The translations under genes and the position numbers were made by a program. DNA of 64,000 bases from Bacteroidota bacterium (GTDB lineage Bacteria > Bacteroidota > Bacteroidia > 2-12-FULL-35-15), in NCBI GenBank assembly GCA_947479085.1, contig CANJYB010000007.1, forward strand, positions 72,432 to 136,431. Reading direction: 5' to 3'. The stretch's first letter is position 1. Each line of letters begins with the position of its first letter. This document shows, in pieces, positions 14,222 to 38,718 of this stretch. The notes beneath the pieces are model-generated. The model was not told the origin of the DNA. It was given only the letters and a program-made list of their open reading frames with translations, and made no database searches.

Positions 14222-14334
14222 TATAAATGATTAAAGCATAAGCTAAATCAATTATAACAAACGGTAAAACAGTAAGGATAGAAAAATGAAAACAGTTTAT
14301 CTATTCTTAGCCTTTTCTCCGAAAGCTATAAATG

Positions 14335-14640
14335 TTGAAGCAACAGGCAGGTCTTCTGACTCGTTCCGGTTTTTAACGCCTTCCCGTCTTTTTTAGTTTC
14401 AAGTTTGAAAGTTTAAAGTTTCAAGTTGAAGAACTAAGTAATAAAACAGTGGCAAAGAATGTTAAAAATGTTATCAATAAAAAATTCAGGTAACAGTTTC
14501 AGGTAATACAACCTAAAACTTGAAACTTTAGAACTTTAAACTGATAAAGAACTTACAGCATCGGGAAATGTCCTGGATTTACACCTGGTTCCCTATTAAA
14601 CCTTCTGTTTATGGAAGGTACCTGATTGCGAAGCAAAAGT
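14335..14640 (-). promoter_or_regulatory. cobalamin (B12) riboswitch in the btuB leader, with an unusually large internal insertion
   Basis: Minus-strand read: …caatcaGGTACCttccataaacagaaggtttAATAGGGAAccaGGTGtaAAtCCaggACatttCCCGatgCTGTAag… followed, about 200 nt downstream, by the B12 box cgAGTCAGAAGACCTGCCtgttgc. These match the conserved GGUnCC / AnnGGGAA / GGUGnAAnUCC / CCCGCnACUGU / AGYCAGnnnACCUGCC cores. A long inverted repeat of gtttcaagtt/aacttgaaac-type sequence separates the cores. Confidence 0.65.
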
Positions 14641-36563: not shown

Positions 36564-36878
36564 ATGAAAAAAATCGCATTATTTCTTGTTGCTTCTTCAT
36601 TTGCATTGGCAGTGAACGCACAGGATGGAAAATCAAAAGCACCGGCAGCAACTCCTGCTCCAACGACTGCAGCTACTCCGGCAGTAACAGCTACCCGTGT
36701 AGCAACACCATCAGCTGATCAATTAAGAGCTGTGGATGCTAATACAAAAGCACACGTTTGCACAGATGTCTGCAAAGACGGAAAGCACAATTTTGTTCAT
36801 GGAGAAAAAGGACATGTTTGCACTTCAGCTTGCGCACCTTCTGCAAAACAAGCACCAAAAGCGGCAGAAAAAAAGTAA
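36564..36878 (+). CDS. secreted Ala/Pro/Thr-rich protein with duplicated H-V-C-T-x-x-C motif (possible metal-binding)
   Basis: 104 aa; signal peptide; …KAHVCTDVCKDGKHNFVHGEKGHVCTSACAPS…. Confidence 0.5.
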   Translation: MKKIALFLVASSFALAVNAQDGKSKAPAATPAPTTAATPAVTATRVATPSADQLRAVDANTKAHVCTDVCKDGKHNFVHGEKGHVCTSACAPSAKQAPKAAEKK

Positions 36879-36897: not shown

Positions 36898-36931
36898 AAA
36901 AAGCCCATCAACTAATTGATGGGCTTTTTTA
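36898..36931. terminator. bidirectional rho-independent terminator
   Basis: AAAAGCCCATCAActaaTTGATGGGCTTTTTTATTT, between convergent genes. Confidence 0.8.
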
Positions 36932-36956: not shown

Positions 36957-37409
36957 CTAAGCAGGCACCATTGCAGATTTAGCAATGTTACGATACGAAT
37001 AGGAATTATAGATATGTCTTCTTGCAAATCTCCCTTGCGAATCTGCATTCACCAGTTTGATGTAAATATTACGGGGAACATCAAAGTATTCATAAATGCT
37101 TCCATCGAGGAAAGAAATTTTAAGAACTGACGATTGGTATTCAAAATCAATAATGGCGGAAGAAGTGGTGGTGGCTGTATATTCCTCAATGCGGGAAGCC
37201 TGGGTTTCTGGCGCCACACTTACCAGGAAATGGTAAGCCTCAATAATTTCTTTACTTTTTTCTTCGGCTTCTAGTTGAAGTGCTTCATTTCCGGGAAATT
37301 TGTCAGGATGACATTCTTTCATAAAATCCCTGTAAATGGTTTTTAATTCTTTTAACTCAGTTGCTTTGGTTACGCCCAATAGCCTGCGGTAATCTCCAAT
37401 TTTTTTCAT
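36957..37409 (-). CDS. J-domain (DnaJ-like) protein with C-terminal KTSC domain
   Basis: 150 aa; the N-terminus (…YRRLLGVTKATELKELKTIYRDFMKECHPDKFPGNE…AYHFL) has an HPD-motif J domain. The C-terminus (…VLKISFLDGSIYEYFDVPRNIYIKLVNADSQGRF…) is KTSC-like. Confidence 0.75.
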   Translation of the reverse strand: MKKIGDYRRLLGVTKATELKELKTIYRDFMKECHPDKFPGNEALQLEAEEKSKEIIEAYHFLVSVAPETQASRIEEYTATTTSSAIIDFEYQSSVLKISFLDGSIYEYFDVPRNIYIKLVNADSQGRFARRHIYNSYSYRNIAKSAMVPA

Positions 37410-37514
37410 TATATTTTTTTTCGGGCCACAAAAGTACTATAAATATTGGATATACAGCAATTTGGGCGCTGTTCAATACGTTAAAATATGCAAAAGGGAA
37501 GAGAAAGAAGGAAA

Positions 37515-37898
37515 TTACAGCACCAATTCTTCAAACAAACGATTGGCTGTTTTCGCCAAATCATTACAAAGCCCGGGATGGGTTTTGGAGGTTTGAATAA
37601 CAGAACTTCTGACCGCAGTAAGCCAACGGAAACGCTCCGGGACATCCAACAGGGCAATGGGGCCGCAGTTTTCTGTGCCTTGTGCTATTTTTTCGAAGGA
37701 ATGTAAGTTTTGTTTTATTTGTTCCACATCTGCATCTTTCGAAAACAGCTTCAGCTTTTCTTCATTCAGTAAATAGCGAACAGAAATAAACTTCTCTTTT
37801 TTGCAAAAAAGAATAATCCCGACATTCAGGAATTCTTCACGTTCCACCTGGGGCAAAACGCGAATGATGGCATACTCATATAAGTACTTTTCTTGCAT
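37515..37898 (-). CDS. DUF3037-like small protein; partner gene overlapping the 3' end of the HipA-like kinase gene
   Basis: 127 aa; overlaps the upstream gene by 23 nt. Assignment to DUF3037 is from memory of that family (…LNVGIILFC…). Confidence 0.5.
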   Translation of the reverse strand: MQEKYLYEYAIIRVLPQVEREEFLNVGIILFCKKEKFISVRYLLNEEKLKLFSKDADVEQIKQNLHSFEKIAQGTENCGPIALLDVPERFRWLTAVRSSVIQTSKTHPGLCNDLAKTANRLFEELVL

Positions 37899-38718
37899 TT
37901 TCTGCTTCAGTTGTAAATAGTTCAGAATGTTTCAGCCTTATTGTCAGGAATTGAAAATAGACTTCTCGTAATTCTTCCGGTGTTTTATCCATACCCTCCC
38001 AATGCAGCCATTCGTCAGGAATCAGCGATACAATATCCCGGATATTTTGCTCCGTCAGTAATGTGCTGAATCGCTTATTTGTTTCTTCGAGTAAAGATGC
38101 CTGTGGCAACAGCACGTGGTCTTTTATTAATGTAAAAGGACTTTTAGCATGCATTTCCCAATTGACGAATGAATGATGAAAATAAAGAGATGCACCATGG
38201 TCAATCAGCCAGAGTTCTTTATGCCACATCAGCATATTGGTATTTTTAAAGGTACGGTCCATATTGATAATAAACGCATCCAGCCACACTATTTCAGAAG
38301 CCTTTTTAGCATCTACAATATTTACCACAGGGTCATAAGTAATAGCACCTGATAAAAAATGCAGGGCTAAGTTCAGCCCCTGGCTGCCTTTTAATAAATC
38401 CTGAATTTCTTCGTCCGCTTCAGTTCGGCCAAAGGCTTCATCCAGGTTAGCAAATACCAGTTCAGGCAATTTTAATCCGAGAGCACGGGCTATTTCTCCA
38501 CCAATGAGTTCTGCAATCAAAGCTTTTGGGCCATGGCCATTCCCTTTAAATTTTAGAACGTATTTAAAATCGTCATCCGCCTCAGCCAATGCCGGTAACG
38601 AACCACCTTCTCTTAAAGGAGTAATGTATCGGGTAACATTTACAGTTCGTAAAACGGGTTTGTCCTGCATTTCAGAAAGTATAATTTCAGTTTGCAAACA
38701 TACGGTATTTTTTATCAT
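37876..38718 (-). CDS. HipA-like serine/threonine kinase family protein (HipA_2-type, no HipB partner)
   Basis: 280 aa; …FIINMDRTFKNTNMLM… resembles the HipA catalytic loop (hNxDDHxKNxS-type) and …LWLIDHGASLYF… a downstream D-x-G metal-binding motif. Confidence 0.6.
   Translation of the reverse strand: MIKNTVCLQTEIILSEMQDKPVLRTVNVTRYITPLREGGSLPALAEADDDFKYVLKFKGNGHGPKALIAELIGGEIARALGLKLPELVFANLDEAFGRTEADEEIQDLLKGSQGLNLALHFLSGAITYDPVVNIVDAKKASEIVWLDAFIINMDRTFKNTNMLMWHKELWLIDHGASLYFHHSFVNWEMHAKSPFTLIKDHVLLPQASLLEETNKRFSTLLTEQNIRDIVSLIPDEWLHWEGMDKTPEELREVYFQFLTIRLKHSELFTTEAENARKVLI

Follow-up and report, generated by a model that had tools for sequence, protein, structure and literature searches.

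A conserved chromosomal HipA_2 kinase–DUF3037 gene pair of Bacteroidota and its relation to the PDC-M66/DS-6/HipAD family

The minus strand of a 64,000-nucleotide stretch of a Bacteroidota bacterium genome (contig CANJYB010000007.1, positions 72,432 to 136,431; the whole stretch is hereafter called the window) carries two overlapping genes, the first for a serine/threonine kinase of the HipA_2 family and the second for a short protein of the DUF3037 family, and together they are a true, tightly coupled two-gene unit. We consider it probable that this unit is an operon in which the kinase is held inactive by its translationally coupled DUF3037 partner, and that it represents a distinct, chromosomal short-partner subtype of the PDC-M66/DS-6/HipAD family. 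The family as such is already known and was recently validated; the conserved, chromosomal short-partner subtype is new. Our analysis establishes that the pair belongs to the family, that its two genes are strictly coupled and that the catalytic residues are intact, and it establishes the manner in which the pair is conserved.

The kinase, its partner and their coupling

The kinase gene lies at 37876..38670 on the minus strand, an assignment that draws on Pfam, PADLOC, homologue lengths and an hhalign alignment to the DS-6A protein discussed below. The longest open reading frame (ORF) at this position extends further upstream (38718..37876, minus strand) and would encode 280 amino acids (aa). 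Because homologues are nearly all 264 aa long, the first 16 codons of the long frame are not conserved and a promoter box is located inside it, the start codon is almost certainly the conserved Met17, which gives a protein of 264 aa. This Bacteroidetes-type −7 promoter box, TATGTTTG (consensus TAnnTTTG), occupies 38695..38702 on the minus strand, 24 nucleotides (nt) before the ATG at 38670. A TAnnTTTG box was found 10–60 nt upstream of the conserved kinase start in 106/163 related loci (65%) versus 3.8% of random windows, and thus the pair usually has a promoter of its own.

Pfam assigned the kinase to HipA_2 (PF20613; E = 2.7e-20, 73.1 bits against a cut-off of 27), with a match that spans residues 32–243 of the protein and positions 5–212 of the 240 in the profile, and the PADLOC model PDC-M66A was matched at E = 1.4e-24. 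The preliminary description of this DNA had proposed a HipA-type kinase from the motifs NMDRTFKNTN and IDHG; both are found in the protein, whose catalytic motifs are intact and which does belong to the HipA_2 kinase family. The predicted catalytic aspartate, within N-M-D-R-T-F-K-N-T-N, is D138 of the 264-aa protein (D154 of the 280-aa ORF; codon 38257..38259, minus strand) and is invariant in both of our kinase alignments. K40, E54, D138, N143 and D157 (264-aa numbering) are unchanged in relatives that are 25–78% identical to the window kinase, and the Gly-rich loop, the Lys, the Glu, the D-x-x-x-x-N motif and the downstream Asp are all invariant in the kinase alignment. Structure prediction was less informative: the AlphaFold2 (AF2) model of the kinase, built from a shallow alignment of 20 sequences that are 75–84% identical, has a predicted local distance difference test (pLDDT) score of 57. 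A Foldseek search of the PDB with this poor model gave nothing at E ≤ 0.001, the weak matches being mostly to atypical kinases, and when PDB sequences were searched with a profile, the only matches were to APH(2'')-Id, at an insignificant E of ~0.2.

The DUF3037 gene (37515..37898, minus strand) starts within the kinase gene, whose 3' end it overlaps by 23 nt (37876..37898). It encodes 127 aa, a short form that has no C-terminal extension, and its product is predicted to be an antitoxin-like inhibitor of the kinase. DUF3037 (PF11236) was matched over the complete profile (positions 1–118 of 118) at E = 5.6e-46, with 156 bits against a cut-off of 22.6, and PADLOC PDC-M66B was matched at E = 3.6e-13 over positions 4–128 of 281 only. 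The short form is the common and much more widespread one, since 1,413 DUF3037 representatives match with E ≤ 1e-3, and most of the nearest 150 are 125–137 aa long. The AF2 model of the partner is confident (pLDDT 90.4, predicted template modelling score 0.83): three strands at the N-terminus are followed by a helical segment, a further two strands and a helix at the C-terminus. No solved relative was found either by Foldseek (best E 0.6) or by a profile search of PDB sequences, which was empty. One candidate, the 'THR2' protein of PDB 8g9k, had matched the single sequence at E = 0.0034 and was lost when a 41-sequence profile was used, so we regard that match as due to chance.

Close relatives of the pair were found in at least 562 species when one genome per species was scanned, and a scan of metagenomes gave at least 501 more; the locus counts that follow are based on the best 80 loci from each scan. 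A DUF3037 gene stood directly 3' of the kinase gene at every locus with room to show it (79/79 in genomes and 75/75 in metagenomes, 154/154 in all), and the six loci with no visible partner all end at a contig edge. The conserved adjacency on which the preliminary description had made the pair depend is therefore borne out, although the figure describes the conserved clade only, because the loci sampled are the window's closest relatives. The 23-nt overlap recurred at 38 other genome loci and 42 other metagenome loci, an 11-nt overlap was seen at 26 and 28, respectively, and the few longer overlaps that were called reflect upstream in-frame start codons. The 23-nt overlap suggests translational coupling of the two genes. 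The order of the two genes is also the same in more distant pairs from Streptomyces, Pantoea and a Campylobacter phage.

The Streptomyces pair (Streptomyces sp. 2P-4, locus L089, NZ_CP095012.1 92222-93363) has a kinase 42% identical to that of the window and a short DUF3037 protein of 131 aa, which means that the short form is not confined to Bacteroidota. Its neighbours on the linear plasmid that carries it (550 kb) are genes for a polyketide synthase and a phosphopantetheinyl transferase, and ccrA. In PP935708, the Campylobacter phage, the gene that follows the kinase (L088:3764-4117) is annotated as 117 aa and has a sub-threshold DUF3037 match. The ORF at the same position in related IMG/VR contigs (L180-L185) is 237–238 aa long, and the partner in PP935708 may be truncated or mis-called. 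Many HipA_2 kinases are named 'aminotransferase' or 'aminotransferase class I and II' in public records (for example in the Sulfurimonas phage OP810509.1), which appears to be a propagated mis-annotation.

Characterized relatives and a proposed mechanism

DS-6, since renamed HipAD, is an Escherichia coli system that was validated by DefensePredictor and loses defence when its kinase carries the catalytic mutation D139A; AlphaFold3 predicts a complex of its A and B proteins (DeWeirdt et al., PMC13092281). It resembles the window's pair in its layout, with a DUF3037 gene that overlaps the HipA_2 kinase gene and follows it on the same strand, in having both Pfam families and the conserved catalytic Asp, and in having no HipB-like helix-turn-helix (HTH) antitoxin. 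Using the DS-6 sequences from the supplement of that paper, we aligned the window kinase to DS-6A by hhalign with a probability of 97.7% (E = 2e-12, 30% identity), and in this alignment D139 of DS-6A falls on the catalytic Asp of the window kinase, within a shared N-x-D-R-T motif. In BLASTP the DUF3037 partner was 27% identical to residues 7–125 of DS-6B, that is, to its N-terminal half only.

A second relative is found in the Retron-Sda1 operon of Sphingobacterium daejeonense, in which a HipA-like/DUF3037 pair alone defends against phage Bas51; deletion of the kinase abolishes defence and deletion of the DUF3037 gene is toxic (PMC12548924). This pair comes from the same phylum as the window's and has the same two domains. 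Compared by its published description, it differs in that an HTH gene and a retron reverse transcriptase and noncoding RNA accompany it, neither of which is present at the window. It also differs in that its DUF3037 protein has a C-terminal region that resembles a retron DNA-binding protein, whereas the window's partner has no C-terminal extension. The window's pair matches both component models of PDC-M66, under the same two-gene definition as was used in PMC12548924, although the M66B match ends less than halfway along its profile, at position 128. PDC-M66 is itself a PADLOC phage-defence candidate that is defined by association and carries no mechanism.

The preliminary description had presented the arrangement as uncharacterized and its kinase-first order as unusual, and neither view can be kept. 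The pair is PDC-M66, experiments have validated homologues of it, both DS-6/HipAD and those of the Retron-Sda1 operon, and both kinase-first Hip orders (hipAB subclades and hipEB) and non-HTH antitoxins are documented (PMC8262856); DS-6 has the same order. The same description was right that no HTH HipB-like gene adjoins the pair in the window.

These homologues suggest how the pair might work. The promoter upstream of the kinase would drive a two-gene operon from which the next gene downstream, a J-domain–KTSC gene described below, is excluded. The DUF3037 protein would bind the kinase and keep it inactive, so that, as in DS-6/HipAD, the kinase would be the growth-arresting effector and DUF3037 its neutralizer. 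Loss or displacement of the inhibitor, whether through phage infection or some other stress, would free the kinase to phosphorylate an essential, conserved cellular target, and growth would stop. By the same analogy, the kinase may be toxic and neutralized by direct binding, and the pair may act in defence or growth arrest. Regulation of the pair must differ from that proposed for long-partner systems, because the partner has no DNA-binding domain and no operator-like repeat precedes the kinase gene.

Conservation of the clade and competing readings of its function

The toxin–inhibitor model draws on the genetics of the homologues, and also on the fact that both Pfam families score above their cut-offs and both PDC-M66 models are matched. 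A number of observations weigh against it. The proteins of the window are only 27–30% identical to those of DS-6, and both tested homologues have long partners (~275 aa with a C-terminal domain). DS-6B, at 275 aa, carries a C-terminal DUF1829-like domain of ~150 aa that is predicted to contact DNA (PMC13092281) and that the 127-aa partner of the window does not have. We found no experiments on a short-partner pair in the searchable literature. Signs of autoregulation are also missing: no DNA-binding domain was found, and no operator-like palindrome upstream of the kinase gene, where there are only weak, AT-rich, long-range inverted repeats.

The remaining points against the toxin–inhibitor model concern conservation, in which the window's clade behaves unlike a typical defence or toxin–antitoxin module. 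Across Bacteroidota (Flavobacterium, Leeuwenhoekiella, Salinimicrobium, a metagenome-assembled genome of Saprospiraceae and unclassified members of the phylum) the kinase is 75–84% and the DUF3037 protein 70–86% identical, and their lengths are almost constant. In Flavobacterium the flanks (YjeF_C-like, GNAT, GcvT and YebC genes) are common to 47/54 loci. Between pairs of Flavobacterium genomes the kinase is 86–91% and DUF3037 78–84% identical, compared with 73–75% for the neighbouring YjeF_C-like, GNAT and peptidase proteins, 91% for GcvT and 95% for YebC; the pair is thus more conserved than three of its five syntenic neighbours and is exceeded only by GcvT and YebC. Close relatives were absent from 2.9 million viral contigs when searched with patterns similar to those that gave more than 500 matches each in genomes and metagenomes. 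Furthermore, none of the 10 neighbouring proteins (within ~5 kb) had a PADLOC match, and the neighbourhood in the window consists of housekeeping and otherwise ordinary genes.

The window's clade is not mobile, but chromosomal, vertically inherited and strongly conserved. Its kinase sequences group by genus, with 83–86% identity within genera versus 67–79% between them, while phage records gave three distant matches and plasmid records nine, mostly on very large replicons typed as non-mobilizable. A search with a more diverse alignment of the family gave 39 viral or proviral loci, in all of which the kinase was only 25–31% identical to that of the window. A long partner (237–281 aa) was present in 38/39 of these loci, and its C-terminal part matched that of DS-6B in 31/38. 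Because the viral and proviral loci are nearly all long-partner, whereas the window's clade is chromosomal and short-partner, the family splits into a mobile long-partner branch, which includes every tested example, and a chromosomal short-partner branch.

Some individual records touch on this distribution. Pairs ~70% identical to that of the window are carried by 278-kb and 131-kb 'plasmids' of Parabacteroides distasonis and Bacteroides finegoldii (NZ_OY725790.1 and NZ_OY725958.1; our H4 and H5), which are typed as non-mobilizable and may be chromosomal fragments filed as plasmids. A metagenome-assembled genome labelled Hydrocarboniphaga daqingensis (L049, CALRIU020000001.1) has a Bacteroidota-type kinase, 77% identical to that of the window, on a 486-kb contig; since the name is gammaproteobacterial, this genome is probably mis-binned or mislabelled.

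The main rival to the toxin–inhibitor model is that the pair has become, or always was, a housekeeping signalling unit: a core regulatory kinase of Bacteroidota with DUF3037 as its obligate regulatory subunit or substrate, which acts in a normal process and has no role in defence or as a toxin–antitoxin module. We consider this possible but rather unlikely. The conservation data favour it more than would be usual for a defence gene: the identities in Flavobacterium place the pair above ordinary neighbours and the kinase close to GcvT, the flanks are stable and sequences group by genus, close relatives are spread over hundreds of species, viral copies were not found and the locus is outside any defence island. 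The polar residues N25, R89, W92 and Q102 of DUF3037, which are invariant across 41 diverse members, also hint that the protein is more than a passive plug. However, the homologue genetics favour the toxin–inhibitor model, in that proteins with the same domains in the same order act as toxin and neutralizer and defend against phage, and overlapping kinase-then-partner genes are typical of toxin–antitoxin coupling. The synteny of the flanks does not extend between genera, and no conserved functional partner gene is found in the neighbourhood across genera; the core-gene status of the pair is assumed and not proven.

A related and tentative suggestion, to which we give a similarly low probability, is that the short-partner pair is an ancient, vertically inherited, near-core kinase–inhibitor switch, a domesticated relative of HipAD that is not mobile defence and would control growth through a conserved target. 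If this is true, DUF3037, with a previously unsolved fold, would be a sensor of some signal within the cell and not of a phage.

A third alternative, which we regard as improbable, is a HipS-like arrangement, in which DUF3037 would be a detached mimic of the N-terminal subdomain of HipA, as HipS is in HipBST, and would inhibit a core-only kinase by occupying the position of that subdomain.

The window's pair can also be compared with the canonical HipBA and HipBST modules. The likenesses are that the window kinase shares clan CL0016, a D-x-x-x-K-N catalytic loop and a downstream Asp with HipA, and that a small putative protein neutralizer is encoded in the same operon. The differences are that the window kinase is ~180 aa shorter than HipA, that there is no HTH HipB, and that the partner is encoded downstream and has an apparently unrelated, unsolved fold. 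In addition, Pfam found only HipA_2 in the window kinase and no HipA_C (PF07804) or Couple_hipA, and E. coli HipA did not match the kinase profile (hhalign probability 0.1%). The kinase's link to HipA is instead suggested by Pfam clan CL0016, to which both PF20613 and PF07804 belong, by the KINtaro classification, which merges these two families, by weak PI3/PI4-kinase matches in two members of the kinase family and by the invariant motifs.

Kinase–DUF3037 modules have only just been recognized as anti-phage systems, and every tested example is of the long-partner type. If the window's clade still consists of toxin–inhibitor pairs, it illustrates how modules of this kind come to be fixed and provides a minimal system in which to find the target of the kinase and to solve the DUF3037 fold. 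If it does not, it marks the point of divergence between a family of defence systems and one of housekeeping kinases. Bacteroidota genomes would be over-annotated if every match to both PDC-M66 models were labelled a defence system. Genetic tools are available for Flavobacterium.

The J-domain–KTSC neighbour and other features of the window

The preliminary description placed three minus-strand ORFs at this locus, the third of them for a J-domain–KTSC (J-KTSC) protein 3' of the pair, and the ORFs, the 23-nt overlap and a 105-nt gap between the DUF3037 and J-KTSC genes (37410-37514) all lie at the coordinates it gave. Judging by the thousands of homologues that exist, the three are real genes and not chance ORFs, and HipA_2, DUF3037, DnaJ and KTSC were each matched in the expected protein by the profile hidden Markov models of Pfam. 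The J-KTSC gene (36957..37409, minus strand) encodes 150 aa with DnaJ (E = 5e-10) and KTSC (E = 1e-17) matches and the HPD motif within 'CHPDKF'. The TAnnTTTG-type box proposed upstream of it was also found: TACTTTTG lies at 37436-37429 on the minus strand, with 19 nt between the box and the ATG at 37409. Downstream of the gene is a bidirectional terminator hairpin at 36898-36929.

The same description had considered the J-KTSC gene a third part of the system, which would make it a functional component that connects the pair with the chaperone system of DnaK. Several observations would fit such a three-gene system. The J-KTSC gene follows the pair on the same strand in the window, and it does so too in a relative of 86% identity (L091) with a different upstream flank; no terminator-like hairpin was found in the gap between the DUF3037 and J-KTSC genes. 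Moreover, in an 81%-identical lineage grpE and a full-length dnaJ gene are located on the same strand 3' of the pair (L093:5529-7297 and L094:1183-2951). However, among the loci with sufficient sequence on the downstream side, 77 in genomes and 60 in metagenomes, none had a J-domain, KTSC or GrpE ORF within 6 kb (0/137), and such a gene was also missing near the pair in L004 and L095. Conversely, homologues of J-KTSC had no kinase or DUF3037 neighbour in 4/4 contexts examined, all of them unrelated; in the window the gene also has a promoter box and a terminator of its own. Roughly estimated, finding a co-chaperone gene next to the pair twice in well over a hundred loci is close to what chance would give, and we treat the grpE–dnaJ adjacency as a coincidence, though both cases are among the window's closest relatives. 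Because the 137 further loci and the four reverse checks all failed to support it, we rejected the link to Hsp70 co-chaperones, and a three-gene system is very improbable. The J-KTSC gene adjoins the module but is independent of it.

J-KTSC is a conserved Bacteroidota protein, with homologues of 148–150 aa that are 67–76% identical in Mucilaginibacter, Arcticibacter and Daejeonella. The homologues always stand alone among variable neighbours, and some sources name them 'curved DNA-binding protein CbpA'.

On the plus strand, a 104-aa ORF (36564-36878) converges with the J-KTSC gene on the bidirectional terminator. Its product has a signal-peptide-like N-terminus, an Ala/Pro/Thr-rich linker and a repeated H-V-C-T...C motif, has no Pfam match on record, and is possibly a small secreted metal-binding protein. 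Elsewhere in the window, a cobalamin riboswitch (RF00174) at 14329-14640 on the minus strand was the sole Rfam match (60 bits, E = 2.4e-12).

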